From Candidatus Omnitrophota bacterium (GTDB taxonomy: Bacteria > Omnitrophota > JACPQZ01): a DNA stretch of 64,000 nt. Location of the stretch: positions 4,005 through 68,004 of the forward strand of contig JACPQZ010000038.1 of NCBI GenBank assembly GCA_016190205.1, in the 5' to 3' direction. Shown here piece by piece: positions 148 to 19,743 of this stretch. Numbering within the stretch: position 1 is the first letter of the stretch; every line of letters starts with the position of its first letter. A model generated the notes under the pieces. It saw only the letters and a program-made list of their open reading frames with translations, had not been told where the DNA came from and ran no database searches. A program made the translations under genes and the position numbers.

Positions 148-161
148 CGAAGGAGGACCTT

Positions 162-5246: not shown

Positions 5247-5260
5247 AGGCAGAACGTTTG

Positions 5261-7003
5261 CTATGCATAATTTTTGCTCCCCTTCGAAGTTCGTGCACGC
5301 CTGACAAATAAGGACACGATTCCAACCACCACAATAATAAACCCGGAGTAGACGAGCGGCGTCCCGGGATCGTTCCGGACAGAAAGCACAGTCGTCTGAA
5401 CGGGGCCGTCTATCCAGCTCGACTGAAAGAGGCTAAAGCCGCGGTACTTCAAAGGATTGTTCATGCGGATGGTGCGCTCCAAGGTGACTCCGTTGGAAGG
5501 GTCTGTGAGCGCCACGTCGCTTTCAAAACCCGCCGCCATCTGGGTGCCCGGGTAATCCAATTTTCTAAAATCCTTGAGTGCCACTAAAAAAGGAAGAGGC
5601 CGCTCGGCCTGACGGTACTCTACGAGGACCTTTTCCTGGCCGAGCGCAAGTTCCTTAGTCTCGCCCTGACCCAGCCAGGCCTCACCTCGGTTTTCCCCAT
5701 CTCTCACCATCACATGAATGGCCTCGTTCCGGACCTCATCGCCCTTGTTGGTCATGCTCTCAATAACCTGTGCCTTGGGGTAATGGGCCGCCACTTGAAA
5801 CCTGATGCCGGCCCAGGGGTGCGCATAGTCCTTGCCCGGCTCAACGGCCTCGATCATCTCACGCTCGGCCGCGGCTCCGGTCATGATGGCCGCGAGCTCC
5901 CCTTGCGGCAACTCGAAGAGCACGATGGAATTTGGAGGAAGCGAGGACCCGGCCTCATGTATGTACTCGGCATGCACGTGAATCTTGTACTCGCGCACGT
6001 GGAGCGATGCAAATTCGGGATGGAAGGCAAAAAGGATGTGGGGGTCCGTTCCCTCGGGGCCCGTCAACGTAAAAGCAACGGCCGGGTTTTGGGGTTCGTT
6101 CGAGCGGCTCACCGGACCCGACTCCGAGATCACAAAATCGGCAAAATAGTCCTGGAAGGCAATGGTATAGGGAGTCCCCTCGATAGGCTGGGCTTTTTTA
6201 AGCTCCTCCGGAACCGGCACCTCGACCGTCCGGCTTAAGTCCGGAAACTCGAGTCTCACGACTCCGCGCACATTTTGGGGAATGGCCGCGGGATGAGCCA
6301 TCCGGGCCCACTCCTCGCGTGAGGAGACTTCCATAAAAAGAACGTGCGCATCACCCCAGCCCACGCCGAAGCGCTCCGGGTGCCGGGCGAGAAGCCACAC
6401 GGCATCCTCCACGCCCTCACGTTCGATCATGAGGTGAACCGCGGGATTGGGCGCCTCGCCTCCAGCATTGATTTCCTCCGTCACTTGAGAATTCGGGTAG
6501 TAACGGTCCACCACAAGGTCCATCGTCTTCCCTTCCATTTCAAATGAAAAAAGCGTGTGGGGCTCATGCACCCAGGCCTGCGTCTCGAAGGCGACGGGAA
6601 TCACGTGGTGCGTGCCCGGATTGGGTTTGTGCACCACGATGACGGACTGGGGCACCCTTAACGTATCGTTTTTCTCCCCTTCCGGAATCACAAGCTGGCC
6701 ATCCACCGCCCAAATGCCCCCGGCGATCCCGCCCAAAAGGATAAGGATAATCCCCAGGTGGGCCAATAGAAACGGGGTGTGTGCGCGCTTCCAGGGAAGC
6801 CTCTTGAGCGCGGCGAGCATGAGGTTTACAGCCAAAAACGAGAGAATTCCCTGAAACCACCAGGACTGATAGACAAAGCGCTGCACGGCCGCGGTTCCGA
6901 AGCGGACCTCATAGATCGTGCCCCAGCCCAAGACGCACGCAATCGCGATAATGAGAAAAACCGCGATCCTAAGCGAACCCAGGAGGCTAAAGAGAGTTGT
7001 CAT
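5261..7003 (-). CDS. ccsB: Cytochrome c biogenesis protein CcsB/ResB
   Basis: 580 aa. N-terminal TM helices, a large periplasmic domain, and a C-terminal PLKYRGFSLFQSSWIDG plus final TM typical of ResB. Confidence 0.85.
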   Translation of the reverse strand: MTTLFSLLGSLRIAVFLIIAIACVLGWGTIYEVRFGTAAVQRFVYQSWWFQGILSFLAVNLMLAALKRLPWKRAHTPFLLAHLGIILILLGGIAGGIWAVDGQLVIPEGEKNDTLRVPQSVIVVHKPNPGTHHVIPVAFETQAWVHEPHTLFSFEMEGKTMDLVVDRYYPNSQVTEEINAGGEAPNPAVHLMIEREGVEDAVWLLARHPERFGVGWGDAHVLFMEVSSREEWARMAHPAAIPQNVRGVVRLEFPDLSRTVEVPVPEELKKAQPIEGTPYTIAFQDYFADFVISESGPVSRSNEPQNPAVAFTLTGPEGTDPHILFAFHPEFASLHVREYKIHVHAEYIHEAGSSLPPNSIVLFELPQGELAAIMTGAAAEREMIEAVEPGKDYAHPWAGIRFQVAAHYPKAQVIESMTNKGDEVRNEAIHVMVRDGENRGEAWLGQGETKELALGQEKVLVEYRQAERPLPFLVALKDFRKLDYPGTQMAAGFESDVALTDPSNGVTLERTIRMNNPLKYRGFSLFQSSWIDGPVQTTVLSVRNDPGTPLVYSGFIIVVVGIVSLFVRRARTSKGSKNYA

Positions 7004-7051
7004 GAAGGGATTCTCGGAAGGTTACCTTATATTATAACTCTTTAGATTCTT

Positions 7052-7246
7052 TTAATCAGCACTTTTCTTAGGTCCCAGCGCGGCCAAGATTTCCCGGCGC
7101 TCCGAATAGCGGTGATTAAGATAGAACGCGGATAGCGCCGTTCCCCCCGTCAGGTAAAATGAGCGCGCAAACGCCTCCTCCTTGAAACACGCGTCCAACA
7201 CCGTGCGATGGAGCGGGGTTAAGACTTCCGGCTTTTCGCTGTCCAA
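7052..7246 (-). pseudogene. Truncated N-terminal fragment resembling an AbiEii/DUF1814 nucleotidyltransferase toxin
   Basis: 64 aa with FYLTGGTALSAFYLNHRYSE (compare GGTAL...R.SEDIDF of AbiEii). It stops where the DxD motif would be. It overlaps the upstream 145-aa ORF in another frame. Confidence 0.3.
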
Positions 7247-7656
7247 AGGTCCACCGCCTCCTGCCAGTGACGTTTGACCTTGGGGTCCATCCTAAGTTCA
7301 GGAAGCGCCCTTTTAATTTCGCTTACGCTCAGATAGCTGAAAATCTCTGGCGGCCCAAGCCGGTCCAGGATACGGGCAATCAGCCACTTGCGCTCCTCAA
7401 AGGGAGAGTGCCGAAGGATCTCACGCACCTGGGCCTCGGTAAGATCGTAATCCCAAAGGAAAGAAGGCCTTTCTTTTTCCTTAAACCCGCCCTGGGGAAA
7501 AAGCGCCACCTCCCTCCTCGTGTGAATAAATTCCATAGTCGCCGCGCGCCCCAGGCTGGAGATGGACGTAAAAAGGGGGTTCTTTCGCAAGTAAGATTGA
7601 ATCTCCTTGAGCTCTTGCGGCAAAAACCGCATGGTTACGAGCTTGTTCTTAGTCAC
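7219..7656 (-). CDS. Hypothetical protein (possible partner or remnant of the adjacent truncated toxin-like gene)
   Basis: 145-aa ORF with no recognisable motifs. Confidence 0.25.
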   Translation of the reverse strand: MTKNKLVTMRFLPQELKEIQSYLRKNPLFTSISSLGRAATMEFIHTRREVALFPQGGFKEKERPSFLWDYDLTEAQVREILRHSPFEERKWLIARILDRLGPPEIFSYLSVSEIKRALPELRMDPKVKRHWQEAVDLWTAKSRKS

Positions 7657-7687
7657 ATATATATTGTATTCGATTCGAATACAAAAG

Positions 7688-9553
7688 TCAACCCTTTCCT
7701 CGGCCCGTAATCCATGACCACTTCATGGGATATTCGTCGGGGTCGAACATGACGAAATACAAATGCCATACGAGGATGGCAAGACAAGCCAGGATGGCCT
7801 CGTAGTAATGGACCGCCGTCACGGCGTCAAAGAACCACTTGGGAAAGACGTTTAAGGTCCAGCTTTCACGAAGCATAAGGGCCCCGGTAGCGGTCATGAT
7901 GACGGAACCCCACACGAGGGCCCAATACTCAAGTTTCTCAATGTAGCTGTACTTTGCAAAGACAGGCTTTTGCCGGCGAAATCCCAAGTTAAAGGCAAGC
8001 AGCTGAAAAGGCTGTATCCAATCCACTCGCCGCGGCCAAAGTTCATTAAGCTCACGCCGGCCGCGCCGCGTCAAGAGCATAAAGATGAGATGATAAGCCG
8101 CAAGTGCCGTGAATAGAACGGCAGCCCAGCGGTGACCCCCGCTGCGCCAATCCACCCTCCCCATGAAGGGACTCGCCCACCAGGCCTGTGGAACCTTAAG
8201 CGCGAAACCGGTATATGCGAGCACCGTAAACGATAGGATTAAGAAGAGGTGCTGTACCCTCTCATTGACCCCCATGCGCTCGGCCGCACCGGCGGCCGCA
8301 GCCGAGCGGCGGTAATGCTCGGCAAGCTTTTTCCTGTAATCCAGCACATTGTGCAAGAGCATGCCTCCAATCACAGAAAAGATGAGCGCGAGATAAAACG
8401 TCCGCACCCAGGACACCGCGCGGTGCTCAAGACCCGGCTGTGTCCCGGAGTGAATAGCGCCACGGGCCACCTGGCTGCTCACGCCCGGGTGGCAGGCGCC
8501 GCAGGTCTGAGCCAGATTCTCGGGGTGTACGGACGAACGCGGGTCGCCCGAAGAGAGGATGTCGTGCGCCCCGTGACAGGAGGCGCAGTGCGCGGCAGTG
8601 ACAGACCCTAGCTGTACCGCCAGCCCGTGAAAACTCTCCATGTAGGTCTTAACCACGTGCGATGGCATCCGGAACTTCGTCACAATGCGCTCCGCTCCGT
8701 GGCACTGGCCGCAGGTCTCCGGAATGTGCGACGGAAAAACCTTGGAGGTGGCGAGCCGCACGGCCTCGATCGTGTGCTCCCCGTGGCAATCCGTGCACAC
8801 CGGGGCTTCACGCTTTCCGGCCGCGGCCGCCCGGCCGTGCACACTGCGGGAAAAGACGCTGCGAATATTTTCGTGGCAGCGCCCGCAGGTCGAAGGGATG
8901 TTCCGCCAGTTGAGCTTCGATTCGGGGTGGGTCGCCCGGTGAAGGTCGTGCGAGCCGTGGCAATCGGTGCAAACGGCGGAAGCCGCTAGCCCCTTCTTAA
9001 GAAGCGCCAACCCGTGCACGCTTTCCGCGTAACTTGCCACAGGCGTCTCCTCGGAGAGATGAAACTTCTTCATCTCATCCACCTGCTCGTGGCACTGGGC
9101 GCAGGTCGACGGGATATTCAGCCTGTAGACTGGCGAGTCGGGATGCCGCGAGGGAACCAGGACATGGGGATCCCCGTGGCAGTCCCGGCAGGAGGCCGCC
9201 TCCGCAATGCCGGCCTTAAGCGCCCGGCCATGGTCGCTTTTCAGATACACTTCACTTTCGATCATATGGCATGTGGAACAGCTTACCGCTGGGAGGGGAA
9301 CTGCGTGCGGTACAGCCTGAATTCCGCTGTGGCAGCTCGTGCACAAGTGTCCGCCATGAACAGAACTCTGGAATTTTTCCTGCTCCACGCGGGCGGGGCC
9401 GTCCGGGACGCCGTGGCAGGCAAAACAGGTTTCGTTATCTATGCCTTCCGCCCGGGCGGACGCCCCGGGCACAGCAATGCACATGACTCCGGCCGCAAGA
9501 AAACCAAGGCGCCACGCTACAAACCGCTTGTTCCTTGATGACACTGGCTGCAC
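7688..9553 (-). CDS. Multiheme cytochrome c (11 CxxCH) fused to a C-terminal dihaem b-type cytochrome membrane domain (CbcL-like)
   Basis: Signal peptide. 11 CxxCH motifs (CFACH, CTSCH, CSTCH, CRDCH, CAQCH, CTDCH, CGRCH, CTDCH, CGQCH, CASCH, CGACH). C-terminal approximately 230 aa contain four or more TM helices with conserved His, resembling a FdnI/HydC-type cytochrome b. Confidence 0.75.
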   Translation of the reverse strand: MQPVSSRNKRFVAWRLGFLAAGVMCIAVPGASARAEGIDNETCFACHGVPDGPARVEQEKFQSSVHGGHLCTSCHSGIQAVPHAVPLPAVSCSTCHMIESEVYLKSDHGRALKAGIAEAASCRDCHGDPHVLVPSRHPDSPVYRLNIPSTCAQCHEQVDEMKKFHLSEETPVASYAESVHGLALLKKGLAASAVCTDCHGSHDLHRATHPESKLNWRNIPSTCGRCHENIRSVFSRSVHGRAAAAGKREAPVCTDCHGEHTIEAVRLATSKVFPSHIPETCGQCHGAERIVTKFRMPSHVVKTYMESFHGLAVQLGSVTAAHCASCHGAHDILSSGDPRSSVHPENLAQTCGACHPGVSSQVARGAIHSGTQPGLEHRAVSWVRTFYLALIFSVIGGMLLHNVLDYRKKLAEHYRRSAAAAGAAERMGVNERVQHLFLILSFTVLAYTGFALKVPQAWWASPFMGRVDWRSGGHRWAAVLFTALAAYHLIFMLLTRRGRRELNELWPRRVDWIQPFQLLAFNLGFRRQKPVFAKYSYIEKLEYWALVWGSVIMTATGALMLRESWTLNVFPKWFFDAVTAVHYYEAILACLAILVWHLYFVMFDPDEYPMKWSWITGRGKG

Positions 9554-11088
9554 TTAAACTCCGTGACGTCCATCCCCAAATCGACCGGGTGTCTAAAGGG
9601 CTGGGACACGAGGCTGGCCGCCGCAACTTCCTGCGGGGGCCCCTGGGCCAAAATGGTGTGGCAGGCATTGCAGTCTTTGGTAATGGTATGGCCCTCGCCT
9701 GAGCGGTGCAGGCCGTCGTGACAGCGGAAACAGCCCTCGGAATTCAAGTGCCCGATGTGATCGGGGTAGGCCCTCCAGTCGGCCTTCATCTCGGGAAAGA
9801 AATTGCGCGCGTAAATCTTCCCAAGCTCCTCGGCGGACCGGCGGATTTCCAGGGCTTTTTCGCGTGCCAGATCAGGGAAACTCCTCTCGTAATACGCGGC
9901 AAGACCCTTTTGGATTTTGCTCACAGCCTCATCCTCCGAGAGGTACGGCTCTGCTAAAATTCTAATCGCCTCGCGCTTTAAGTAGGGAAGGGTGGGGTCC
10001 AGCCGTTCTGTTTCAAAAGCCCGTTCCACGGCGCGGTCGGGGGGATGGAAATGATGGCTGGGCCTGTTGTGGCAGTCCATGCAGTCCATGCGGCGCACTT
10101 CACGGGACGCGAGCTCCCCGGCCGTCAGGGGGTTTTCCGTCGAGACGTATTCCGTGGCGTGCCCCCCGCGGTCCACGACCTTGATCCAGGGAATCTCCTC
10201 CCGGCCTTCGTCACGGGCCGCATAGTAGATTTCCTTATTGATATTCATATGCCAGTGGATGCCGGCCGGGGTTCCGCGCTCCGGATCACCGCCTCCCACC
10301 TTAATCAGCATCTGGATCTGCCAGGGAGAGTTTGTCTCATCGGCCAGGTAGTGCTGAAAAACTTTTTGTTTCGCCCCGAAAAACTTCTCCGGCCAATGGC
10401 ACTGTTCGCACGTCTCCTGGGCGGGTCTTAAGTCCTCGATGGGAGTGGGAATTGGGCGGGGGTACTTTTTGAGCGACACGGCATAGACCTGATAGGCCCC
10501 CGTGATTTTGGAGCGCACAAACCAGCTTGCGCCGGGCCCCACGTGGCACGACGCACAGGCCACGCGCGCGTGGGGGGAGTGCTGATACGCCGTAAACTCG
10601 GGCTTCATGACCTGGTGGCACACGAGCCCGCAGAATTCGACCGACTCCGTGAAGTGATACGCGCGGTAACCCGTAAGCGAGAGGAGCATCACCCCGGTCA
10701 TCGCGACGAGAAATGCGCCCAACAAAAAGGCCCTGTGAGAGGGCCGGTTGAGATCGAGGCTGGGGAGCCTCGTCTGCCCCAGCTCGGGCCTCCTCTTCCT
10801 GCGCCTGCGCTCCCAAAGGAGACCCAAGAGAATGAGGATTACCCCCGCGGTCGCCCCCATGGGGCATACGAGGTAAATGACGACGCCCAGGTAGGCGTTC
10901 GTGTGGCGGCTGAAAAAATCCGTCACCATGAGGGGAAGACCAACCGCGGTATTTAAGCAAGCGATACCTATCCCAAATAAACTTACCGGGTTACGTATGA
11001 GGCCTACGGGTCTTAAAGGACGTTTATCCACTATGAGTGGGTCCCTTTTTGTCCATACTGCGGATCTTCGCAATGAGGGCAAGGACAA
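9517..11088 (-). CDS. NapC/NirT/NrfH-family membrane-anchored multiheme cytochrome c (7 CxxCH)
   Basis: Three N-terminal TM helices followed by ESVEFCGLVCHQVMKPEF...SPHARVACASCHV, the hallmark first-heme region of NapC/CymA. Seven CxxCH motifs in total. Confidence 0.7.
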   Translation of the reverse strand: MSLPSLRRSAVWTKRDPLIVDKRPLRPVGLIRNPVSLFGIGIACLNTAVGLPLMVTDFFSRHTNAYLGVVIYLVCPMGATAGVILILLGLLWERRRRKRRPELGQTRLPSLDLNRPSHRAFLLGAFLVAMTGVMLLSLTGYRAYHFTESVEFCGLVCHQVMKPEFTAYQHSPHARVACASCHVGPGASWFVRSKITGAYQVYAVSLKKYPRPIPTPIEDLRPAQETCEQCHWPEKFFGAKQKVFQHYLADETNSPWQIQMLIKVGGGDPERGTPAGIHWHMNINKEIYYAARDEGREEIPWIKVVDRGGHATEYVSTENPLTAGELASREVRRMDCMDCHNRPSHHFHPPDRAVERAFETERLDPTLPYLKREAIRILAEPYLSEDEAVSKIQKGLAAYYERSFPDLAREKALEIRRSAEELGKIYARNFFPEMKADWRAYPDHIGHLNSEGCFRCHDGLHRSGEGHTITKDCNACHTILAQGPPQEVAAASLVSQPFRHPVDLGMDVTEFKCSQCHQGTSGL

Positions 11089-12373
11089 AGATTCCCAGGA
11101 GGGCCACGGTAACCCAGAGACCCTTGCGGCGGAAGTAGACCTCTTCGACCGCCTTTTCTCCCGCCTTCCGGGCCTCGTCTGCGTGGGCCAGGCCCTCGCC
11201 GGCCACCGATTTCACTTTCTCGATCGAAAAGGAATGCACATAGGCCCGGGTCTGCGTGAGCCGTGAAGAAGCCTCATGGAGCGTATACTCGGCGTCCTCC
11301 ATGTCCATGCCAAAATGATGGGCGCGCTGGATACTTTCCTCGGCCCCCTGGATGCGGGCCTTCAAATCCTCAACTGCCGCGCGCATCGCCTGCGCCGTTT
11401 CAAATCCTTTTGAGCCCGGCTCATGACAGCGCGCGCAGAAAGACTCCGGCCCCGTGCCCAGCATCTCATCGGAGGTCTTTTGAATGGCGTGGTTTCCGTG
11501 GCACACCTCGCATTCCGGAAGCCCCAGGGCCTCGTGGACCATCTTGTGCGGGCTGGCCGCGAAAAGGTCGCGCGAGAGGCTGTGGCACTGGGCGCAGACA
11601 TTCCCTACCGCAATCGCCCCTGGCTTGGAGGCCTCGTGAGAACCGTGGCAGCTCGCGCAATGCGGCGCCCCCCGGTCACCGGCCACAAGAAGAGCCTGTC
11701 CATGCACGCTGTGGGCGTAGTCCCAGTGCTGGTTCACGGGCAGCCCGTGACGCTTCATGAGATCCGCATCCGTGTGGCAGACGGCGCAGGTCCCGGGGAT
11801 ATTCGTGGCGTAAACGGGAGAGAGCGGGTCCTTGGCTGAACGGATGCCGTGCACTCCATGACAGCTCGTGCAGACCGCTACATCTTCATCCCCGGCGGCG
11901 TTTGCCTTGCCGTGCTGGCTCGTCAGATACTTCGCATACTGATCGGTGGGAAGATTAGGATTAAAGCGCCGCATAAAGGCGGGATCCGCGTGACAGCGCG
12001 CGCAGAAGCCGGGGATATCCTGGCGGGCGGGACGGCCCACGAATCCCTTTTCAAGGGCCATAGAAAGAGTCGGATCCTGTGCAGCAGGGTCACCCCCATG
12101 GCAGTCGGCGCAGGTTAAGCCCCGCTTAGAATGCACATCAACTTGAAAAAGAGCGGCGGGGCCGCGGGTTTGGCCCTCCAGCATCTCGTGGCATTCGGCG
12201 CACGTGTTTAAAGGCGCGGCCCAGGCTGACACCGCCGGCCACATGGCGAGGCTTAAGCCTGCAAGAGAAAAAATAAGACGCCGTATCAATGCCGAGCTAT
12301 GAACCATTTGGCGTATACCGTCATCCCTATCATGTAGAAAACTGTCAGAAACCCCGCGAGCCAGGCGAGCCAA
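11024..12373 (-). CDS. Nonaheme cytochrome c with a C-terminal TM anchor
   Basis: Signal peptide. Nine CxxCH motifs (CAECH, CADCH, CARCH, CTSCH, CAVCH, CASCH, CAQCH, CEVCH, CARCH). C-terminal hydrophobic helix GLWVTVALLGIFVLALIA. Confidence 0.75.
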   Translation of the reverse strand: MARLARGVSDSFLHDRDDGIRQMVHSSALIRRLIFSLAGLSLAMWPAVSAWAAPLNTCAECHEMLEGQTRGPAALFQVDVHSKRGLTCADCHGGDPAAQDPTLSMALEKGFVGRPARQDIPGFCARCHADPAFMRRFNPNLPTDQYAKYLTSQHGKANAAGDEDVAVCTSCHGVHGIRSAKDPLSPVYATNIPGTCAVCHTDADLMKRHGLPVNQHWDYAHSVHGQALLVAGDRGAPHCASCHGSHEASKPGAIAVGNVCAQCHSLSRDLFAASPHKMVHEALGLPECEVCHGNHAIQKTSDEMLGTGPESFCARCHEPGSKGFETAQAMRAAVEDLKARIQGAEESIQRAHHFGMDMEDAEYTLHEASSRLTQTRAYVHSFSIEKVKSVAGEGLAHADEARKAGEKAVEEVYFRRKGLWVTVALLGIFVLALIAKIRSMDKKGPTHSG

Positions 12374-13416
12374 TGCGCTTGGCCCCGGGCCGCCGGCCGG
12401 TCGAGCCAGGGGACTAAGATCAAGACCAGCCCCGCAAGACCCATGGCGACAATCGCCACAAGCTCCCCCTCAAGCCCCAGGATGTGCCCCGGGAAAAACT
12501 TGAGCGTCTGAAACATCCACAAAAAGTACCACTCCGGCTCGATTCCGGCCGGTGTCGGGGCAAAGGGATCCGCCTTCTCGCCCACCGTGGCCGGATAATA
12601 GGCGCTCAAGGCAAGCACTATCCCGAGCATGACCGACCAGGCGGCCAGATCCCGCAGGAGAAAATTTGGGATAAAGGGCATGGCGCGCTCCGACCGCACG
12701 GATAAAGGCCGGCTCATCCCCTGAAGCTGAACCATCATAAGATGCGCGCCCAATAGGAAGAAAAGGCAGACGGGGAGCGCCGCGATATGGAACCAAAAGA
12801 AGCGGGAAAGTGTCGCGTCCCCCACATCCGCCCCGCCGCGCAGGAAAGTGCTCAACACCTTTCCGATCACAGGGACGCTTGAGGCGATCTCCGTCCCCAC
12901 TTTTGTGGCGAAAAAGGAGAGCGTGTTCCAGGGAAGGAGGTACCCGGTGAAACCAAAGCCCATAAGGAGAAAAAAAAGGAGACAGCCCGTGACCCAGGTG
13001 AGCTCCCGGGGCGGCCGGTAGGCCTTCAGGAAAAACGCGCTCGCCATGTGGATGAAGGCCGAGAGGATAGCCATGTTCGCCGCCCAGGCGTGCACCGAAC
13101 GCACGAGCCACCCAAACTCGACCTTCGTCATGATAAGGCGCACCGACTCGTGCGCCTCGCCCACAGAGGGCCTGTAGTACAAAAGGAGGAGGAGCCCGCT
13201 CAAGATCTGCACCGCGACCAAGACAAGCGTCGTTCCGCCCAGATAGTACCAAAGAGAGTGGCCGTGGACCGGCACAGTCTTGTGCGTGACAAGCTCGCCC
13301 AAGCCCCCCAAGTTGTAGCGGGCTTGAAAAAAAGACTTGAGCCTCTCGCGGGCGCCCATGGGTGAACCCATCGCGTTATCCGGTCTTGGTGACCACGACG
13401 TCTTCCCCGCGCACAT
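12286..13416 (-). CDS. Cytochrome b of a bc1/b6f-type complex (cyt b fused to a subunit-IV-like region)
   Basis: 376 aa. HSLWYYLGG...QILSGLLLLLYY...VRSVHAWAANM...HMASAFFLKAYRPP are conserved cyt b/b6 haem-ligand helices. Confidence 0.85.
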   Translation of the reverse strand: MCAGKTSWSPRPDNAMGSPMGARERLKSFFQARYNLGGLGELVTHKTVPVHGHSLWYYLGGTTLVLVAVQILSGLLLLLYYRPSVGEAHESVRLIMTKVEFGWLVRSVHAWAANMAILSAFIHMASAFFLKAYRPPRELTWVTGCLLFFLLMGFGFTGYLLPWNTLSFFATKVGTEIASSVPVIGKVLSTFLRGGADVGDATLSRFFWFHIAALPVCLFFLLGAHLMMVQLQGMSRPLSVRSERAMPFIPNFLLRDLAAWSVMLGIVLALSAYYPATVGEKADPFAPTPAGIEPEWYFLWMFQTLKFFPGHILGLEGELVAIVAMGLAGLVLILVPWLDRPAARGQAHWLAWLAGFLTVFYMIGMTVYAKWFIARH

Positions 13417-13837
13417 TCACCTCGTAGTTTTCCAGGGGACGCGGGGGCGGGCCGGAAATGACTTGTCCTTTGAGATCGAATCTCCCGTTGTGGCAGGCGC
13501 ACCAGATGGAGCGGGAGGCATCGTCGTACTGAACCGTGCAGTTTAAGTGGGTACAGACGGCGGAGTAAGCTTTGAGTTCCCCCTCAAGGGTGTGCACCAA
13601 AAGCCCCGGCCGGTTCCCGAAGCGGAAGATCTTGGCCGAATTGGGTTTTAAGTCGCCTATCTTGGCCGCGACGACGCTGGATTGTGCGGCCTCAACGCCT
13701 GGAGGGGGCTTGAGATAACGCAGGATGGGATAGAAGGCGGCGGCCAGAATGGCAAGGAGCGAGCCGTTTAAGGCGGATTGACAGAAAGACCTTCGTGTGA
13801 TGAAAAACCCGCGTGCTCCCGGGCGATCTGCCCTCAT
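13376..13837 (-). CDS. Rieske [2Fe-2S] iron-sulfur protein, TAT-exported
   Basis: RRSFCQSAL twin-arginine signal. Rieske boxes CTHLNC and CACHNGRF. Confidence 0.85.
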   Translation of the reverse strand: MRADRPGARGFFITRRSFCQSALNGSLLAILAAAFYPILRYLKPPPGVEAAQSSVVAAKIGDLKPNSAKIFRFGNRPGLLVHTLEGELKAYSAVCTHLNCTVQYDDASRSIWCACHNGRFDLKGQVISGPPPRPLENYEVNVRGEDVVVTKTG

Positions 13838-13865
13838 GTGACTTTACCCCCACCCAGAGATCGTA

Positions 13866-15923
13866 TCAGAAGGTCTTGGAGACCGCAAGTGAGACGAGAT
13901 GCGCCTTGTACTTTCCTATTTCAGCCTGCGAGCCGGGCTGGTAGTGGTAATACCCGTACTCGGCCCTGACCGAGGTGTCTTGAGCAAGCTCACAGCGGAG
14001 GCCGCAGGTGAGATCAATTTGACCAAAGTCCGCACCCAGCGGAAGCCCGGTCGACGTAAAATCGTTGAAATTGTCGGCCTCGGAATACTGCGCAGAGGCG
14101 TCGAGCGTAAGATTGGGTCTCATCATATAATCGGCCCCGACAAGCCAGGTATTGACGTCCGCGTTAAACACCGGGACCTGCCCGCTTGCGGCAAGCCTCG
14201 CCGGGGTCACGGTGGCCGCCGTCTGATGCGAGAATGAGCCCATCAGCATGAGCTCCCTAAGCACGTGGATGGTCAGGTCATAAGTATAGGTGTGTGAGGT
14301 AAACTCGCTTTTCCTCCTGGGCTCGCTTTCCGCGCGTGTCAGGTAATCTTTGTCCTGAAGCTGATAACGAAATGAGGTGCGGACCTTGCGGACGGGACGA
14401 AGGCTCACGCGCGCCATGATCTCATCCGTATCGATACTCATCCCGTCCATAAAGGCTGAACGGGCCGCGGTCGAACCGGGATCGGTCTCAAAGAGATCGT
14501 CATAGTCCTGGTTGTCCCGGCGGTGCCGGTAGTGGGTGGTGAGATCGACATAATGCACCGGGGTCACCCTGCCTCCCACGGTCACAGTCCCCCGATCGGC
14601 ATCCGTAATCGTGTCGCGCTCGAAGCTGACAGCGCCGGTGGCGTAGCTCACAGACTGCTCTTCCAGCTTGATCCTGGACTGCTCAAGCTCTAGTTCCGAG
14701 TAGAGCGCCGTATAGGGGATCCCGGTGTAATGGATGTTGAGCCCCTCCCCCCACCTCACGGCTGTCGAGTCATTGGTGCTGATTTCGGCCTCTTCAACAA
14801 ATCCGTCAGGCGTGCTGCCGCCCGAACTATTGGGATTACTATCCTCCGGATACCTGGAATTGCTGTCCCGGCTCACCAGTTCTGACTTAAGTTTAAGTCC
14901 CACTGCCACGTCCTCCCACTCATAGAGCACGGCATTTCCCACCCACGTATGGGTAAAATAATCATTATCAGCGGTGGCATCCCGCTTTTGCTTGGGGTTA
15001 CTGAAATTGGTGATCACCCCGTTCTCATTCGTTTCAAAGATGTCTTCCAGTTCCGTAAAATTGAGATACGCGAACTGGTAACCCCCCGACGTAAAGAGTT
15101 TCCGGTCCCAAAACCACCTTTCTGCACCTAAGAAAGTTGTGTACAAATCGCTCTCCGGGCTTTGGAGTTGCCGCCGGATCTTTTTGTCGGAAGCTGTCGT
15201 GGTCGTGGAGAGGCTCTTTTCTACGCGGGTCGATTCGGTCCGGACGAATTCCACGTGCTGTTTCCCCGTGAGCCGCGCGCCGCGAAAGTCATCTGCGACT
15301 TCGAGCTCCAGCATATCCACCCGCTCATCAAAGTCCTGCCACGAGGGCCCGATAAAACGCGTGGTGCTCCCTTCCTTCACTCCCGCCCAGGTCAAACGGG
15401 ATTTCGCCCCATCCTTAAACTCACGCTCATACGTAAAGGTGATTTCCGGCACGTCTTCCTTGCGGAGCCCGGTCTTAAAACCGAAGTGGCCGATCTCAAG
15501 TTCAAGATCTTTATCCGCATCCTGGCCGGACAAGGTGCCGAAGCGGTAGTACACGCCTCCGGTATTGTCAAAGTACTTGCTGAACTCATTGTAGTCAAAC
15601 GTTAGAAAACCCAGACCTTCTTTTTTTAGCGTAATCTCCCCTCCCAGATCGTTCTGATCTATGAGGGCATGCGCCTCGGAGGAGAGCTGGGTGCCATCCG
15701 CGAGTCCATAATTAAACTCGAAGTCCTCCACGCCAAACACGTAACGATCGCGCATCCACTGGTGTTCCCGAAACTTAGGCCTGTCTCCATCCACAGAGAT
15801 ATATCGCAGCGGGAGAACAGAAATCCCAACCTCGGGATCCCCGGCCTGCGCCGGGCCGCCCCATGAGAGCAGAACCCACATCGCTCCGGCCGATAATAAC
15901 CCGATGATCTTGGCGCGCATCAT
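13866..15923 (-). CDS. Outer-membrane beta-barrel protein (685 aa); candidate porin of a porin-cytochrome conduit
   Basis: N-terminal signal peptide. C-terminal ...LAVSKTF with an aromatic last residue. Amphipathic alternating pattern throughout. Size is comparable to MtrB/PioB-class porins. It lies between two multiheme cytochrome genes. Confidence 0.5.
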   Translation of the reverse strand: MMRAKIIGLLSAGAMWVLLSWGGPAQAGDPEVGISVLPLRYISVDGDRPKFREHQWMRDRYVFGVEDFEFNYGLADGTQLSSEAHALIDQNDLGGEITLKKEGLGFLTFDYNEFSKYFDNTGGVYYRFGTLSGQDADKDLELEIGHFGFKTGLRKEDVPEITFTYEREFKDGAKSRLTWAGVKEGSTTRFIGPSWQDFDERVDMLELEVADDFRGARLTGKQHVEFVRTESTRVEKSLSTTTTASDKKIRRQLQSPESDLYTTFLGAERWFWDRKLFTSGGYQFAYLNFTELEDIFETNENGVITNFSNPKQKRDATADNDYFTHTWVGNAVLYEWEDVAVGLKLKSELVSRDSNSRYPEDSNPNSSGGSTPDGFVEEAEISTNDSTAVRWGEGLNIHYTGIPYTALYSELELEQSRIKLEEQSVSYATGAVSFERDTITDADRGTVTVGGRVTPVHYVDLTTHYRHRRDNQDYDDLFETDPGSTAARSAFMDGMSIDTDEIMARVSLRPVRKVRTSFRYQLQDKDYLTRAESEPRRKSEFTSHTYTYDLTIHVLRELMLMGSFSHQTAATVTPARLAASGQVPVFNADVNTWLVGADYMMRPNLTLDASAQYSEADNFNDFTSTGLPLGADFGQIDLTCGLRCELAQDTSVRAEYGYYHYQPGSQAEIGKYKAHLVSLAVSKTF

Positions 15924-15937
15924 GCCCCCCTTAGCTT

Positions 15938-16714
15938 TTAATAGCGCAAATGGTCATCAAAATTCGAGCCGTGCGGTGCCGTGTGGCACCCGGCGCTAAA
16001 ACATGTCCCTTGCGCAAGATTGGCCGTATGGCTTCTCTTGCCAATGGTCGGAAAATTAACCTGGGTATGGCACCGCAGACACAGGGTGCTGTCACGCGCG
16101 ATCAGCATCTTCGCATGCATGGAACCATGCACCTTGTGGCAGGTCGTGCAGCCCTCGCGCAGGGCCTCATGCTCCCACACGAAGGGCCCCCTCTGCTCCT
16201 TATGGCATTTGTAGCAGGCCTCGTTGATGTCCTGAAGGGTCGTGGCTGACCAGGGCCTGACCTCGGTCCCGTGGGGGCTGTGGCAGTCGGCACAGCTCAT
16301 CTTGCCCTCTAAGACAGGGTGATGAAAGGAAAGCTTAAATTCCATTTTCTTGTCCAGGTGACATTCAAAACAGGTGCTGGGGTCCTTCCGGGGATTTACA
16401 ATCCCTCCCACACCCTTCCCGCCCCCCGCCGCCACGTGGAGGCTCCCCGGGCCATGGCACATCTCGCAACCCTGCCGTTCAAGACCCTCTCCCTTCACAT
16501 TGATACGCGCATGGGTGGAAAGCTTAAATTCCTGGTGCTCCTTGTCGTGACACATGGCACACGTCTCGGTACCAACGAATGTCGCTTCTTCGGACTCCTC
16601 TCCTTGAGGCTCACCCTCATCGGCCCACACCGATGTGGCACCCAATAGACACACGGCAACGAAAGCAATCCCCCATCCCGCCTGTTTCATCAAACCTCTT
16701 CGTGAGCCGCGCAT
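15938..16714 (-). CDS. Periplasmic multiheme cytochrome c (7 canonical CxxCH plus one CX4CH)
   Basis: Signal peptide. CAMCH, CEMCH, CFECH, CADCH, CYKCH, CTTCH, CLRCH and a non-canonical CFSAGCH. Confidence 0.75.
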   Translation of the reverse strand: MRGSRRGLMKQAGWGIAFVAVCLLGATSVWADEGEPQGEESEEATFVGTETCAMCHDKEHQEFKLSTHARINVKGEGLERQGCEMCHGPGSLHVAAGGGKGVGGIVNPRKDPSTCFECHLDKKMEFKLSFHHPVLEGKMSCADCHSPHGTEVRPWSATTLQDINEACYKCHKEQRGPFVWEHEALREGCTTCHKVHGSMHAKMLIARDSTLCLRCHTQVNFPTIGKRSHTANLAQGTCFSAGCHTAPHGSNFDDHLRY

Positions 16715-16731
16715 ATTTGTGCCTCCTTGGG

Positions 16732-17151
16732 CTATTCAGATTGTGCGGGAGTGCCCGCCGTATCCGTGCCCGCCGCACCACCCGCAGCCGGAGGGGTCAC
16801 CCCCTCGGGATGCGACGCGGGATCCGCAAGATCGGTGCCCTGTTCCCATTCCATAAGATTGGCGGCTCCGTCCTGGTCGGCATCTTCCTGATCCAGGAGG
16901 TGGAAGTCCGCCTCCGCCAGGATCTTGGCCGCCCCTCCGGGCTTCGTGGCCTTGAGACTCAACCCATAGACATTGAGGTCATCCGCCTTTCCCATGGCCC
17001 CCTGGTGGCAGACCTTGCAGGAATAGGCCTTCGCGTCCTTCCCCGGATAGGCTTTTTTGAAGGTCATCAGGTTCTGAACCGTCGCCTCTGCGCCCGGGCA
17101 AACGGAAAAAAGAATAAAACTTGAGACGATTAAGAGACCTGCACGGGACAT
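16732..17151 (-). CDS. Monoheme cytochrome c with an acidic Pro/Ala/Gly-rich C-terminal tail
   Basis: Likely start is MSRAGLLIVSS (signal peptide). A single CKVCH motif. Low-complexity tail PAAGGAAGTDTAGTPAQSE. The start overlaps the end of hemA. Confidence 0.5.
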   Translation of the reverse strand: MSRAGLLIVSSFILFSVCPGAEATVQNLMTFKKAYPGKDAKAYSCKVCHQGAMGKADDLNVYGLSLKATKPGGAAKILAEADFHLLDQEDADQDGAANLMEWEQGTDLADPASHPEGVTPPAAGGAAGTDTAGTPAQSE

Positions 17152-18203
17152 GTGACTTCCTCCTTTAAAGGACCACGGTTTAACCATTCCATAAAATGCT
17201 CTACCTGATCATGCAAGATAAGTTCACACGCCGGGAGGTGCCTTCCCCGTTCCTTGAGCGCGGCTTGGGACGCGGCGGTAAGATCATCGATATTCTTAAG
17301 GTGCACGCCGCGCACCTCGCCCGCCGCGGGGTCCACGTTGCGGGGGACGGCGAGATCCAATAGATAAACGGGTCTCCCGCTGCGGCGGGTCATGACGGCG
17401 AGCATGTCCTCGCGGCTTAATACATAATGGGGTGCCTGGGTTGAGAGTACGGCGAGATCCACCTCTTCCAAATATCTCATCCCCTCTTCCCACGAAGCCC
17501 ATCCTGCCCGGCAAATCTCCGCCAGGTCCTGGGCCCTGGAGAGGGTGCGATTGACGACCCAGAGCCGGCCCAATCCAGCCTGGGTGAGATTCCGGGCCGT
17601 AGACTCCGAGGCCTTGCCCGCCCCCCAAACGAGCGCGCTTCTACATTCAAGATCCTGTCCCAAGGACTCGCGCGCCCAGCGCACGACCATGGATCCTATG
17701 GAGGTCTGCCCCTTTGCGATATCGGTTCGCGAACGCACGAGGTGCGCGCAGTGAAATGCCTTCTGAAAAAGCCGGTTTAAAATGGAATCCGCGGCCCCCG
17801 CGCTTACGGCCGCGCCATAGGCGTGCTTGACCTGGGCCGTGATCTCGGTTTCTCCCAAAATCATGGAATCCAGACCTGCCGTCACGCGAAAGAGGTGGTG
17901 CGCCGCCTCCCGCCTTTCCATCCAGTACAAGTGTGCCTCGAATTCGGAAGGCTCCAGATGACTTAAGCCCGCTAAAAGCTCCACTCCTTGAGCGCGCGCT
18001 TCGTGGAGATTACCACTTACCGCGTAAAGCTCCGTCCGGTTACAGGTAGACAAAATAACCGCTTCCTGAATGGAAGCGGTTAAGAGTCCTGGGAGGGCCT
18101 TTGGTAAATCCCGTGACGGGATGGAAAGCCGCTCGCGCAGATGGATGGGCGCGGTGCGGTGATTCATTCCTAAGACGGATAGGGACATGACCCTCCCAAA
18201 CAA
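17130..18203 (-). CDS. hemA: Glutamyl-tRNA reductase
   Basis: GMNHRTAPIHLRERLSI, VILSTCNRTELYAV and a Rossmann GAGK motif. It lies upstream of, and in the same orientation as, the cytochrome genes. Confidence 0.8.
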   Translation of the reverse strand: MFGRVMSLSVLGMNHRTAPIHLRERLSIPSRDLPKALPGLLTASIQEAVILSTCNRTELYAVSGNLHEARAQGVELLAGLSHLEPSEFEAHLYWMERREAAHHLFRVTAGLDSMILGETEITAQVKHAYGAAVSAGAADSILNRLFQKAFHCAHLVRSRTDIAKGQTSIGSMVVRWARESLGQDLECRSALVWGAGKASESTARNLTQAGLGRLWVVNRTLSRAQDLAEICRAGWASWEEGMRYLEEVDLAVLSTQAPHYVLSREDMLAVMTRRSGRPVYLLDLAVPRNVDPAAGEVRGVHLKNIDDLTAASQAALKERGRHLPACELILHDQVEHFMEWLNRGPLKEEVTCPVQVS

Positions 18204-18349: not shown

Positions 18350-19042
18350 TTAATTGCAGTTTCGCAGGATACCCTTAAGCTGCCGGGGGGCTAATATCGT
18401 AATCCAGCCCCTGCCGGACGAAACCCATCCCTTTTGCTTGAGGTGCGCCAGCGTGCGGATGGAGGTCTCCCAGCGCGTGCCCACCATACGCGCGAGCTCC
18501 TGGTGCGTAATGGGAACGGTCCGGCCGAAGGAATTTCGGAGTTTTAAGAGGACGTGCACGAGCCTCTGCTCCACGCTGGCCTGGGAGAGGCTGATCATCT
18601 CCGCCATGTGGCGCATGCGGTCGCAGCAGCTTAAGAGGACCCGGGATGCGAACTTGGGGTAGCGGCTTAACAGTTTAAGAAACGCGGCCCTCGGTATGCG
18701 GAGAAAGCTCGCATCCGTAGCCGCCACGGCGCGTGTGGAGTAGACGCCCCCCCCATCCAGGGCGGAGATCCCGCACAGGGCCTCGTCGGGCGTCAGGATA
18801 AAAATGGTGGCGTACCCCCCGTTTAAGGTGTGTTTAATAAGATACACCCAGCCGCTTTCGATGATCCAGACAAACTCGGCCGGGTCCCCTTCATCGAAGA
18901 TGACCTTGCCCTTCTTAAATTTAAGGAATTCCAGCTCCCGGGATAGGCCCCTCCGCGCCGAGCTCGGCATGGAGCAGAAATAGGAGATCCGGTCCAGGGA
19001 ATCGAGGGTAATCATGGCGGTACCAAGATACCCCCTCGGCAC
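18350..19042 (-). CDS. Crp/Fnr-family transcriptional regulator
   Basis: cNMP-binding domain plus C-terminal HTH (ELARMVGTRWETSIRTLAHLKQKGWV). Confidence 0.8.
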   Translation of the reverse strand: MPRGYLGTAMITLDSLDRISYFCSMPSSARRGLSRELEFLKFKKGKVIFDEGDPAEFVWIIESGWVYLIKHTLNGGYATIFILTPDEALCGISALDGGGVYSTRAVAATDASFLRIPRAAFLKLLSRYPKFASRVLLSCCDRMRHMAEMISLSQASVEQRLVHVLLKLRNSFGRTVPITHQELARMVGTRWETSIRTLAHLKQKGWVSSGRGWITILAPRQLKGILRNCN

Positions 19043-19062
19043 GAAGTCTTCTATGATTAAGA

Positions 19063-19743
19063 TCAGGGTTTGGGAGAGTGATTGAGGAAAGCCGCCAGGC
19101 CTTCGGAATTGGTGATCGTGGTCTTGCCGCGTGAAGATTGAATCAAGCCCTGCTGCTTGAAACGGCTCAAGATCCGGATGGCCGTCTCATGGGTGGTGCC
19201 GGCGATCTCGGCAAACTCCTGGCGGGTCAACGGGATGGTACCTGAAAATTTCTTGCCCAATACGAGCAGGGTATGGGCGAGCCTAAGTTCCGCCGGTTCG
19301 TACAGCCGGCAGCCGGCCCGTTCCACGATCCTCAAGCGCTCGCAGAAAAGGCACATGACGTCTTGCGTGAAATCAAAAGACCGCCTCATGATGCCGTGCA
19401 TGGCCTGAATGGGAATGCGCATGACGGTCGTGGGCTCCGCCGCCACGGCATCCGCAGGGTAGGGCTTGCGGTCTAAGGAAGGAAGACAGCAAAACACCTC
19501 GCCGCGGGTCATGACACAAGTCGTACTCACCTTGCCGTCGGCCAGGACTTTTAAAAGATGCACGCGCCCGCTCTTGACGAGCCAAACGGCATCGGAGGGC
19601 TGGCCCTCATAAAAGATGACCTCTCCTTTGGCAAAATGCTTTTCGGACGAGGCCTCCGCCAGACGGTGCTGGTCTTCCCGGCTTAAACGGCGGAAGGGAT
19701 CTGTCTTTTGAAGGAGCGCGCCATTTTCGGTCATACCGCGCAC
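19063..19743 (-). CDS. Crp/Fnr-family transcriptional regulator (paralogue of the adjacent gene)
   Basis: cNMP-binding domain plus HTH (EFAEIAGTTHETAIRILSRFKQQGLIQS). Confidence 0.8.
   Translation of the reverse strand: MRGMTENGALLQKTDPFRRLSREDQHRLAEASSEKHFAKGEVIFYEGQPSDAVWLVKSGRVHLLKVLADGKVSTTCVMTRGEVFCCLPSLDRKPYPADAVAAEPTTVMRIPIQAMHGIMRRSFDFTQDVMCLFCERLRIVERAGCRLYEPAELRLAHTLLVLGKKFSGTIPLTRQEFAEIAGTTHETAIRILSRFKQQGLIQSSRGKTTITNSEGLAAFLNHSPKP

Follow-up and report, generated by a model that had tools for sequence, protein, structure and literature searches.

The 64-kb window analysed here (64,000 nucleotides of contig JACPQZ010000038.1, from a Candidatus Omnitrophota bacterium) carries on its minus strand a compact cluster of genes for multihaem cytochromes, a large β-barrel and several quinone-reactive membrane complexes, which is probably a dedicated extracellular electron-transfer system, in a sense that refers to its identity and not to the direction of the electron flow. 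This assignment relies on a cytochrome homologous to MtrA that is encoded directly upstream of a barrel with the predicted fold of MtrB, and on the linkage of this pair to a Rieske/cytochrome b complex and to further quinone modules. An initial annotation, made from the sequence alone, had proposed the region 7688-18203 as a candidate for such a system, and the MtrA homology and the MtrB-like fold turn it into a strong one. The cluster is shared by a subset of Omnitrophota, as a trait of their lineage, and is not unique to this genome.

Gene content and packing

The minus-strand genes that had been proposed for 7688-18203 were all recovered by listing and translating the open reading frames (ORFs), and Pfam and NCBIfam searches bore out their domain assignments, although they are nine and not ten (the annotation's own list also amounts to nine). 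The gaps between the maximal ORFs range from -88 to +28 nucleotides (nt), with +31 nt to the next ORF, and their haem-c motifs add up to 36 (1 + 8 + 9 + 7 + 11), in keeping with the previous estimate of at least 35. No CxxCH was found in the other ORFs of at least 80 amino acids (aa) in the window. The conserved unit is wider than this region, reaching downstream to the ResB/CcsA genes (3493-7003) and upstream to two Crp/Fnr genes (18350-19743), and comprises the following genes:

19063-19743, minus strand: Crp/Fnr-family regulator, upstream copy (cNMP_binding and HTH_Crp_2)
18350-19042, minus strand: Crp/Fnr-family regulator, hemA-proximal copy (cNMP_binding and HTH_Crp_2)
17130-18188 (ORF to 18203), minus strand: short hemA, glutamyl-tRNA reductase of about 352 aa (TIGR01035)
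16732-17187, minus strand: periplasmic monohaem cytochrome c (CKVCH, signal peptide, TSP3-like Ca-binding motif)
15938-16714, minus strand: MtrA/DmsE-type multihaem cytochrome, 258 aa (seven CxxCH and one Cx4CH)
13866-15923, minus strand: MtrB-like outer-membrane β-barrel by predicted fold, 685 aa
13376-13837, minus strand: Rieske 2Fe-2S subunit (boxes CTHLNC and CACHNG; PF00355)
12286-13416, minus strand: cytochrome b with fused b6-like and subunit-IV-like parts (PF00033, PF00032, PEWY)
11024-12373, minus strand: nine-haem cytochrome c with signal peptide and C-terminal transmembrane anchor (nine CxxCH)
9517-11031 (maximal ORF to 11088), minus strand: ImcH-type seven-haem inner-membrane cytochrome, NapC/NirT-related (PF03264)
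7688-9553, minus strand: CbcL/MtoC-type 11-haem cytochrome with dihaem-b membrane domain, 621 aa (PF01292)
5261-7003, minus strand: ResB (CcsB) of System II maturation (PF05140, E=3.8e-31)
3493-5334, minus strand: CcsA (ResC), System II haem handling (PF01578, E=6.5e-35)

An MtrA-like cytochrome and an MtrB-shaped barrel

The 258-aa cytochrome matched the MtrA chain of PDB entry 6r2q_A in a phmmer search (E=2.2e-31), and its top NCBIfam matches were DmsE-family and GSU2203-family models. With eight haem sites and a score under the DmsE-family cut-off, it is a shortened relative of MtrA and no canonical member of the DmsE/MtrA decahaem family; the eight-haem pattern is kept in nearly all of its orthologues. 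Regarding the barrel, neither the 685-aa protein nor any of 34 relatives matched Pfam MtrB_PioB at E<=1, no PDB chain matched the sequence profile of the barrel family at E<=10, and the only Pfam match of the protein was a weak C-terminal one to OMP_b-brl. The confident AlphaFold2 model of the barrel, built on a 35-sequence alignment (predicted local distance difference test, pLDDT, 89.8; predicted template modelling score, pTM, 0.80), is all-β from residue 31 to the C-terminal Phe, has about 26-28 strands and no plug, and matches MtrB globally, in agreement with a large plug-less barrel of the 26-strand MtrB fold. This substantiates the previous proposal of an outer-membrane-type β-barrel, and the MtrB-like fold of the model rules out a plug-less TonB-dependent receptor. 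The protein is identical to MBI2870651.1 (HYY14_02945), from a metagenome-assembled genome (MAG) labelled ‘Candidatus Omnitrophica bacterium’.

An exhaustive profile search retrieved 909 barrel-family representatives at E<=1e-3, 397 of them at E<=1e-30, as counted after clustering at 50% identity. The MtrA-like cytochrome gene immediately precedes that of the barrel in the window and in each of the 21 other independent loci for which upstream sequence exists, with a gap or overlap of under about 100 nt. By analogy with the known conduits, it is proposed that the MtrA-like protein resides inside the barrel and moves electrons across the outer membrane. There is also a subfamily of longer barrels (about 770-915 aa) with one or two N-terminal PSCyt1-type monohaem domains (CLRCH and similar), including P0096, P0180, P0184, P0193, P0204 and about 23 other representatives, and locus L019 (9195-12424). 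In this clade of large-barrel fused cytochrome-porins, whose PSCyt1 domain suggests an origin in Planctomycetota or Verrucomicrobiota, a 264-aa MtrA-like cytochrome is still encoded directly upstream.

Conservation and re-ordering of the cluster in relatives

The window proteins were compared by tblastn with 26 fetched loci (designated here by L numbers) and with precomputed gene tables, while relatives were located by a scan with a 14-sequence barrel alignment. Thirteen of the 14 loci from that scan belong to MAGs labelled Omnitrophota or ‘bacterium’ and the remaining one to a Planctomycetales, and the named homologues of the barrel in a word-indexed search were all Omnitrophota. Strings of nearly the same genes, with 45-76% identity between the proteins, recur in independent Omnitrophota MAGs, so that the arrangement goes beyond chance and the cluster that had been proposed from a single sequence gains comparative support. 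The full string (hemA, monohaem cytochrome, MtrA-like cytochrome, barrel, Rieske, cytochrome b, nine-haem cytochrome, ImcH, sometimes CbcL, ResB and CcsA) is found in L005, L006, L010 and L012, and it runs up to ImcH, without ResB/CcsA within the retrieved region, in L022 and L025; these six loci share the window-type order of the pair and the Rieske/cytochrome b genes. Altogether, 12 loci have Rieske/cytochrome b genes at most 10 kb away from the pair, in varied gene orders. The halves of the string are parted by a 7-kb insert in L008 and L014 (in the latter, with genes for a Band-7 protein, a c3-like cytochrome and a molybdopterin/FeS/NrfD complex), and L023 shows the order FeoBA, LysR, MtrA-like cytochrome, barrel, ResB, CcsA, multihaem cytochrome, Rieske, cytochrome b and ImcH. 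In L020, whose barrel is only 28% identical, a short hemA and a monohaem cytochrome are followed by two MtrA-like/barrel pairs, a multihaem cytochrome, Rieske and cytochrome b, and then by a monohaem cytochrome, a multihaem cytochrome, an iron-sulphur protein and NrfD.

Thus, the pair stays linked to Rieske/cytochrome b, ImcH, short hemA and ResB/CcsA at barrel identities of 28-53%, and the extra quinone module is exchangeable among loci (ImcH/CbcL or NrfCD-type). Since the link between the conduit and Rieske/cytochrome b survives deep divergence and re-orderings, the cluster genes are best understood as one functional system, which is reinforced by the fusion of monohaem domains either to the MtrA-like protein or to the barrel. 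The pair is also found without the rest of the cluster, in L001, L003, L009, L019 and L024, with a small monohaem cytochrome downstream of it in L001, L003 and L024 and a PF27139 (Aq_1264_TM) membrane protein upstream in L001 and L003 (8727-9242).

The surroundings of the pair in some of these loci contain further genes. In L001 (4313-9210), its neighbours encode a P-type ATPase, a two-domain multicopper oxidase, a CarboxypepD_reg protein and the PF27139 protein, and in L023 FeoB/FeoA are encoded upstream of it (5649-8131). Downstream of ImcH, L022 (16725-22070) and L025 (12898-21518) encode NHL-repeat β-propellers, several multihaem or c7-type cytochromes and a 672-764-aa protein without a Pfam match. 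By their sequences, this set is possibly a second putative conduit module, with the 672-764-aa protein as another barrel, and it may be what FeGenie scored as Desulfovibrio ferrophilus-like in PMC10066038. Moreover, proteins of 409-431 aa with the Cyc2 motif (AIPAFARKYGVSCNVCH....PRL) and a C-terminal Phe are encoded in L014 (6727-8022) and L022 (6809-8038), each between two monohaem cytochrome genes and inside the orthologous cluster; no ORF with this motif was found in the window.

Three inner-membrane quinone modules

The initial annotation had distinguished three quinol-interacting modules (Rieske/cytochrome b, NapC-like and CbcL-like), and they are real by domain and motif evidence. The Rieske protein matches PF00355 (E=2.8e-14), and its top NCBIfam matches are b6f-type Rieske models. 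In its second box, CACHNGRF, it has Gly and Phe at the positions where high-potential Rieske proteins have Ser and Tyr, and it therefore probably holds a low-potential, menaquinol-type cluster. Cytochrome b matches PF00033 (E=6.4e-50), PF00032 (E=7.6e-12) and the NCBIfam cytochrome b6 model (228 bits), whereas the ExtP and ExtQ models stay under their cut-offs (207.4 bits for 290 and 21.4 for 150, respectively). Its translation contains the His pairs of helices B and D (HAWAANMAILSAFIH, HIAALPVCLFFLLGAH) and the Qo-site motif PEWY, so that, together with the two Rieske boxes, the hallmarks of bc1/b6f-type complexes are present. No canonical cytochrome c1 or f subunit was found among the Pfam and NCBIfam matches, and the adjoining c-type protein is the nine-haem cytochrome, which is presumed to be the c-type subunit of the complex. 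A multihaem c subunit replaces cytochrome c1/f in the Rieske/cytochrome b complexes of anammox Planctomycetota and in Geobacter ExtMNOPQ, and the window complex resembles them in combining a b6-like cytochrome b and a Rieske protein with such a subunit; unlike them, it is located genetically between an outer-membrane conduit and two quinol modules. The nine-haem cytochrome has a transmembrane segment at residues 416-441 and probably starts at Met22, near 12310. Its gene follows that of cytochrome b in L005, L006, L008, L010, L012, L014 and L022, with nine CxxCH wherever the ORF is complete (the L008 contig ends inside the gene). Its haem domain and the one of the CbcL-like protein are paralogues (34% identity, E=1e-30), i.e., the same haem module occurs on two different membrane partners.

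The second module is a protein of 523 aa in its maximal ORF and 504 aa as annotated (P0244), with hydrophobic segments at residues 35-56, 65-93 and 118-141, a CGLVCH (Cx3CH) at 153 beside the third helix, and then six CxxCH. It matches PF03264 over residues 118-207 (E=2.7e-8), and its sole PDB match is NrfH (2j7a_C). These are the features by which ImcH has been recognised (three helices, Cx3CH plus six CxxCH, and NapC/NirT similarity; PMC6295460), and the haem spacing is that of the Omnitrophica ImcH homologues in the supplement of that paper, with an offset of 18-19 residues. P0244 is 68% identical to P0255, which, from its locus-tag prefix (A3I71_03) and its length of 505 aa, appears to be OGX46065.1 (A3I71_03655), one of the ImcH homologues listed there. 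The protein at 9517-11031 is thus assigned to the ImcH type through these features and its similarity to the Omnitrophica homologues, which would tie it to the ImcH of Geobacter; there were no Geobacter sequences among its 120 best matches.

The third module contains 11 CxxCH within residues 43-355, followed by hydrophobic segments at about 382-404, 436-455, 476-496 and 577-605 (four to five helices in a simple hydropathy scan, and not a clean six), and it matches PF01292 (E=5.5e-14, residues 430-603) and TIGR01583 (E=1.3e-11). It has, therefore, the architecture that defines CbcL/MtoC/MtrH proteins, namely a multihaem domain with 3-23 CxxCH fused to a HydC/FdnI-like dihaem-b domain. Omnitrophica proteins of this architecture have been listed as CbcL/MtoC homologues (PMC6295460), and orthologues are encoded in L006 and L010.

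Monohaem cytochrome, haem supply and regulation

The monohaem cytochrome (16732-17187) belongs to an orphan family, with no Pfam match and no meaningful PDB match; a hint of PccH for the monohaem protein of L020 (E=0.14) was discarded. In the window and in L022, the monohaem and the MtrA-like genes are separate, with a signal peptide on each. In seven relatives, both domains share one stop-free frame: L005 (989-2275), L006 (8618-9916), L010 (8723-9979), L012 (8761-9957), L014 (8737-9987), L016 (4903-6075) and L025 (3734-4930). The L006 and L012 translations show the fusion itself, with the domains joined by a low-complexity Pro/Glu/Ser/Ala linker (a second signal peptide is not present in L006), and in L025/L026 it was called as a single 398-aa gene. 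Because of this fusion to the MtrA-like cytochrome in seven relatives, the monohaem protein can be regarded as functionally tied to the conduit.

The initial annotation had also associated hemA, the Crp/Fnr regulators and the System II genes with the cluster, and all of them are conserved parts of it across relatives. Translation of hemA starts at the ATG at 18188, preceded by a GGGAGGG Shine-Dalgarno sequence. The protein scores 306.6 bits on TIGR01035 (cut-off 209.55), covering profile positions 2-335 of 416, and keeps the catalytic motif STCNRTE, with GlutR_N and Shikimate_DH as its only domains; the C-terminal dimerisation domain of about 80 residues is absent here and in all the cluster-linked orthologues. 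Such a short hemA (about 350-370 aa) also heads the cluster in L005, L006, L010, L012, L014, L020, L022 and L025. Orthologues of the upstream Crp/Fnr copy, 51-62% identical, are found upstream of hemA in L006, L012 and L016, the hemA-proximal copy is kept beside the first in L012, and L022 and L025 have paired Crp genes as well. Matches to the FNR box were no more frequent in the window than expected by chance, and none of them lay upstream of hemA. The adjoining ResB and CcsA genes are the signature of System II. ResB orthologues with 54-59% identity follow the cluster in L005, L006, L007, L010 and L013, and CcsA scores 168.7 bits on TIGR03144, slightly under the cut-off of 187.6; its tblastn alignments with orthologues begin at residues 31-100, so that its true start probably lies downstream of that of the maximal ORF.

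Two further observations concern the surroundings of hemA. Within its 5' coding sequence, at 18056-18082 of the minus strand, an 11-bp stem without mismatches encloses a 5-nt loop (TAACCGCTTCC-ATTCA-GGAAGCGGTTA), and a T-run comes after it. This is the strongest terminator-like match of the region, and it may have arisen by chance or be an attenuator-like element. Besides, a gene for a NirA-family sirohaem nitrite/sulfite reductase-like protein is located at 19731-21521 (minus strand) of the window, and similar genes lie upstream of the cluster, by a few kb, in L010 (1698-3380), L014 (1-267) and L023 (2678-4369), which may reflect a shared tetrapyrrole demand or a mere conserved neighbourhood.

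Comparison with known systems

The direct adjacency of an MtrA/DmsE-type cytochrome and a large MtrB-shaped barrel downstream of it is shared with MtoAB, PioAB and MtrAB (6R2Q), and the lack of a surface cytochrome in the cluster with MtoAB and PioAB. As in Mto clusters, there are a monohaem cytochrome (compare MtoD) and a CbcL-type gene (compare MtoC). Unlike in those systems, the cytochrome has eight haems and not 10, the barrel has no detectable sequence similarity to MtrB/PioB, the host belongs to Omnitrophota, and Rieske/cytochrome b, ImcH, hemA and ResB/CcsA are encoded in the same string. The ImcH-type protein resembles ImcH from Geobacter sulfurreducens (GSU3259) in its three transmembrane helices, its Cx3CH plus six CxxCH and its NapC/NirT-like core, and the CbcL-like protein resembles Geobacter CbcL (GSU0274) in joining an N-terminal multihaem domain to a HydC/FdnI-like dihaem-b domain, although with 11 haems instead of nine. 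In Geobacter, however, imcH and cbcL are dispersed and away from the outer-membrane conduit, while here they adjoin each other and the MtrAB-like pair. With Cyc2 there is in common the idea of an outer-membrane barrel to which a monohaem cytochrome is tethered; Cyc2 is defined by a porin domain, a length of 365 aa or more and a CxxCH preceded by AxPxFAR[Q/K][T/Y] and followed by PxL (PMC8406198). Nonetheless, the window barrel has about 26 strands versus 16 and a separate eight-haem partner, and its cytochrome-fused relatives carry a PSCyt1-type domain and not the Cyc2 motif.

The initial annotation had considered an operon joining a bc complex to a porin-cytochrome module as undescribed. This does not hold in general terms, since the Geobacter cluster extHIJKLMNOPQS already brings together an outer-membrane barrel, multihaem cytochromes and Rieske/cytochrome b (PMC5877670), but this specific combination was not found described. 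The two clusters differ in several respects: ExtI is smaller than the window barrel and not MtrB-like; the rhodanese ExtH and the selenocysteine-containing multihaem ExtKL have no counterparts in the window, which contains no rhodanese, ExtI-type porin or extra cytochrome; cytochrome b is split in ext (ExtP/ExtQ) and fused here; and the MtrA homologue, ImcH, CbcL, hemA and Ccs genes of the window are all absent from ext. The kinds of components are, therefore, all known, and a bc-plus-porin cluster has a precedent. What was not found in the searchable literature is the MtrB-like, sequence-orphan barrel family with its obligatory eight-haem partner, and its conserved wiring to Rieske/cytochrome b, ImcH, CbcL, short hemA and Ccs genes.

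Regarding Omnitrophota/Omnitrophica, no description of this system was found in the searchable literature. Zhong & Shi (2018) reported three ImcH and three CbcL homologues in Omnitrophica, with no mtrAB/mtoAB next to imcH (PMC6295460). In the P0255 locus, the MtrA-like/barrel pair is located four genes upstream of imcH. The barrel probably went unnoticed since its family escapes the sequence models, which would explain why that survey recorded a neighbouring ImcH without an outer-membrane partner. The cluster is not described in PMC10066038 (Seymour et al. 2023), whose supplements make no mention of MtrA, porin, ImcH or Rieske, and a survey of ferrous oxidation (PMC10654088) does not mention Omnitrophota.

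Proposed function and alternatives

From the gene content, the homologies, the predicted fold and the re-shuffled linkage, we infer a localisation, a complex formation and an electron path as follows. In the outer membrane, the eight-haem MtrA homologue would be held inside the barrel of about 26 strands, forming a two-component conduit like MtoAB/PioAB, whose outermost haem, as no surface cytochrome is encoded in the cluster, would meet soluble or chelated substrates, as proposed for those systems. In the periplasm, the small monohaem cytochrome would feed or drain the conduit, and three parallel inner-membrane modules (Rieske/cytochrome b with the nine-haem subunit, the ImcH-type seven-haem cytochrome and the CbcL/MtoC-type 11-haem/dihaem-b fusion) would join the periplasmic haem chain to the (mena)quinone pool. 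The short glutamyl-tRNA reductase and ResB/CcsA would supply and attach the 36 c-haems, the two Crp/Fnr regulators probably control the expression, and the cluster genes would be transcribed together. As the initial annotation had already stated, the direction of the electron flow cannot be read from the sequence; outward flow is slightly favoured. In that case, quinol would be oxidised by the module that suits the acceptor potential, as ImcH and CbcL do in Geobacter, with the Q-cycle bc complex serving the highest-potential acceptors, and soluble or chelated Fe(III), Mn(IV) or humic substances would take up the electrons outside the cell. Metal-reducing cytochromes (periplasmic, of the Desulfovibrio ferrophilus type, as detected by FeGenie) have been reported in 10 of 23 Omnitrophia species (PMC10066038).

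Several points weigh against a dedicated, outward-directed extracellular system. The cytochrome scores 164 bits on TIGR03508, under the cut-off of 192.2, and has eight haem sites, not 10; the common descent of the barrel with MtrB/PioB is unproven, with no detectable sequence similarity between them; and no surface-exposed cytochrome is encoded in the window, which limits the reactivity with solid minerals. Scans for sigma-70 promoter-like and terminator-like signals across the cluster stayed at chance level and are uninformative about co-transcription. The recurring PhsA/Psr-like enzyme near the cluster (see below) could mean that its cytochromes also serve periplasmic reductases, the Cyc2-motif genes of L014 and L022 favour inward flow, and the source organism is represented by a MAG only.

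The same machinery might work inwards, in lithotrophic Fe(II)/Mn(II) oxidation or electron uptake, which is possible, although we are doubtful about it. The MtrA-like/barrel pair would then oxidise an extracellular donor, as MtoAB/PioAB do, and the monohaem cytochrome would distribute the electrons to Rieske/cytochrome b, reversed by the proton-motive force and reducing quinone for NAD(P)H formation, to CbcL/MtoC and ImcH, acting as quinone reductases for low-potential donors, and to a downhill branch ending in a terminal oxidase or periplasmic reductase encoded elsewhere. For the uphill branch there is the example of iron oxidisers such as Acidithiobacillus, where bc complexes are the accepted route. 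A two-component conduit without an MtrC-type surface cytochrome is what MtoAB/PioAB have, and CbcL homologues, as MtoC, are carried by the mtoAB clusters of iron oxidisers (PMC6295460); the sister clusters with Cyc2-motif proteins (as defined in PMC8406198), the multicopper oxidase upstream of the pair in L001, the pair of L011, flanked by two periplasmic molybdoenzymes, one of them followed by a weakly NapB-like small cytochrome, and a source habitat that is apparently groundwater, from the names of related MAGs, point in the same direction. On the other hand, the window has neither a Cyc2 gene nor a terminal oxidase, ImcH is so far known from Fe(III) reducers only and is implicated there in nothing but quinol oxidation (PMC6295460), three quinone modules are easier to understand as potential-graded quinol oxidases, and L022 and L025 continue into NHL-propeller/multihaem modules that, by their sequences, seem similar to the metal-reducing type of FeGenie.

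It is unlikely, albeit worth considering, that no electrons cross the outer membrane and that the barrel is a substrate-uptake porin like ExtI, with the cytochromes passing electrons from the three quinol dehydrogenases on to reductases in the periplasm, for example to the PhsA/Psr-like molybdoenzyme, whose substrates would be polysulfide, thiosulfate, arsenate or selenium compounds. The nearest described composite, extHIJKLMNOPQS, does combine a porin-like protein, multihaem cytochromes and Rieske/cytochrome b, and comprises ExtKL, a periplasmic multihaem selenoenzyme reported to be essential for the respiration of elemental sulfur, and ExtI, reportedly a selenite uptake porin (PMC13510729); the window cytochrome b reaches 207 bits on the ExtP model, and in the window, L008, L011 and L014 the cluster has a PhsA-like molybdoenzyme gene next to it or within it. 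Nevertheless, the barrel matches MtrB globally, while ExtI is reported to be weakly similar to phosphate-selective porins (PMC5877670), so that an ExtI-type reading of the barrel was considered less likely; the MtrA homologue always precedes the barrel, equivalents of ExtH, ExtKL and ExtI are absent and the ExtP/ExtQ models stay under their cut-offs, and many loci have the pair without any molybdoenzyme. Even less credible is mere adjacency, i.e., the independent transcription of the barrel pair, the bc complex, ImcH, CbcL and hemA. The scans for promoters and terminators speak neither for nor against internal signals, the pair stands alone in six or seven related loci (among them L001, L003, L009, L019 and L024), and hemA lies beside cytochrome-maturation genes in other bacteria for general reasons, but the linkage has persisted at 28-53% barrel identity through several rearrangements, the gene overlaps suggest translational coupling, and fusions tie the monohaem protein to the conduit. 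A catalytic nitrite or hydroxylamine module was rejected, as there was no NrfA/HAO among the Pfam and NCBIfam matches, only NrfB/NrfH-like electron-transfer domains (catalytic haem motifs were not specifically examined).

Implications

Omnitrophota belong to the PVC (Planctomycetes-Verrucomicrobia-Chlamydiae) superphylum. It can be tentatively suggested, although with more doubt than confidence, that they share with relatives probably from other PVC phyla an ancient, unrecognised conduit family, which in one lineage has become hard-wired to Rieske/cytochrome b. If this were true, the family would be made of an MtrB-shaped barrel and an eight-haem cytochrome, often with a tethered monohaem domain, and it would offer the first case of a porin-cytochrome conduit whose dedicated partner in the inner membrane is a Q-cycle complex. 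This would mean either an extracellular respiration with a higher proton yield than the known ImcH/CbcL/CymA routes or, considering the Cyc2 genes of the sister clusters, chemolithotrophic Fe/Mn oxidation in a phylum regarded mainly as ultra-small predators or parasites. Omnitrophota are now viewed as mostly host-dependent nanobacteria, and the 15 kb that this lineage devotes to 36 c-haems speak for an autonomous life by respiration.

Extracellular electron transfer is surveyed with sequence models of MtrB/PioB, MtrA, Cyc2 and similar proteins, to which the family of 909 barrel representatives is invisible. Recognising the pair would extend the candidate redox capacity towards metals and electrodes to many Omnitrophota from groundwater and sediments and to the clade of cytochrome-fused barrels. 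Furthermore, Rieske/cytochrome b encoded beside ImcH and CbcL offers a natural test case for the matching of quinol oxidation routes to the acceptor potential: does the Q cycle drive extracellular electron exchange, or is it driven by it? The same cluster could show which.

Neighbouring genes

Three ORFs near the downstream end of the cluster are not part of the conserved string:

7219-7656, minus strand: 145-aa ORF outside the conserved cluster, without Pfam or NCBIfam match
2606-3223, plus strand: TorD/NarJ-type chaperone (Nitrate_red_del domain)
90-2609, plus strand: PhsA/PsrA/ArrA-like molybdopterin oxidoreductase (Molybdopterin and Molydop_binding domains)

The molybdoenzyme and chaperone genes (90-3223) are convergent with the cluster and possibly associated with it. 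The top NCBIfam match of the molybdoenzyme is PhsA (392.6 bits, under the cut-off of 694). In L011 (4578-8476), an 80%-identical molybdoenzyme and its chaperone are encoded directly upstream of the MtrA-like/barrel pair, and the barrel is followed by a second molybdoenzyme and a small cytochrome with a weak NapB-like match; more distant relatives of the enzyme (27-30% identity) are encoded between the barrel and Rieske in L008 (4680-6950) and L014 (13247-18240). The 145-aa ORF, whose N-terminus looks like a ribbon-helix-helix motif by its sequence, was rejected as a component of the cluster, as it had no tblastn match in the loci searched.

At the far end of the window, an origin-type region with dnaA, dnaN and gyrB (57173-62662) and gyrA (53017-57150, minus strand) places the cluster about 45-55 kb from the replication origin; the GC skew changes its sign near 62 kb. 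The 1377-aa gyrA product has an intein, with an Intein_splicing domain found between residues 153 and 663. Finally, four tRNA genes detected with Rfam lie in 45511-49217 (minus strand), three of them clustered at 48.4-49.2 kb, and are unrelated to the cluster.

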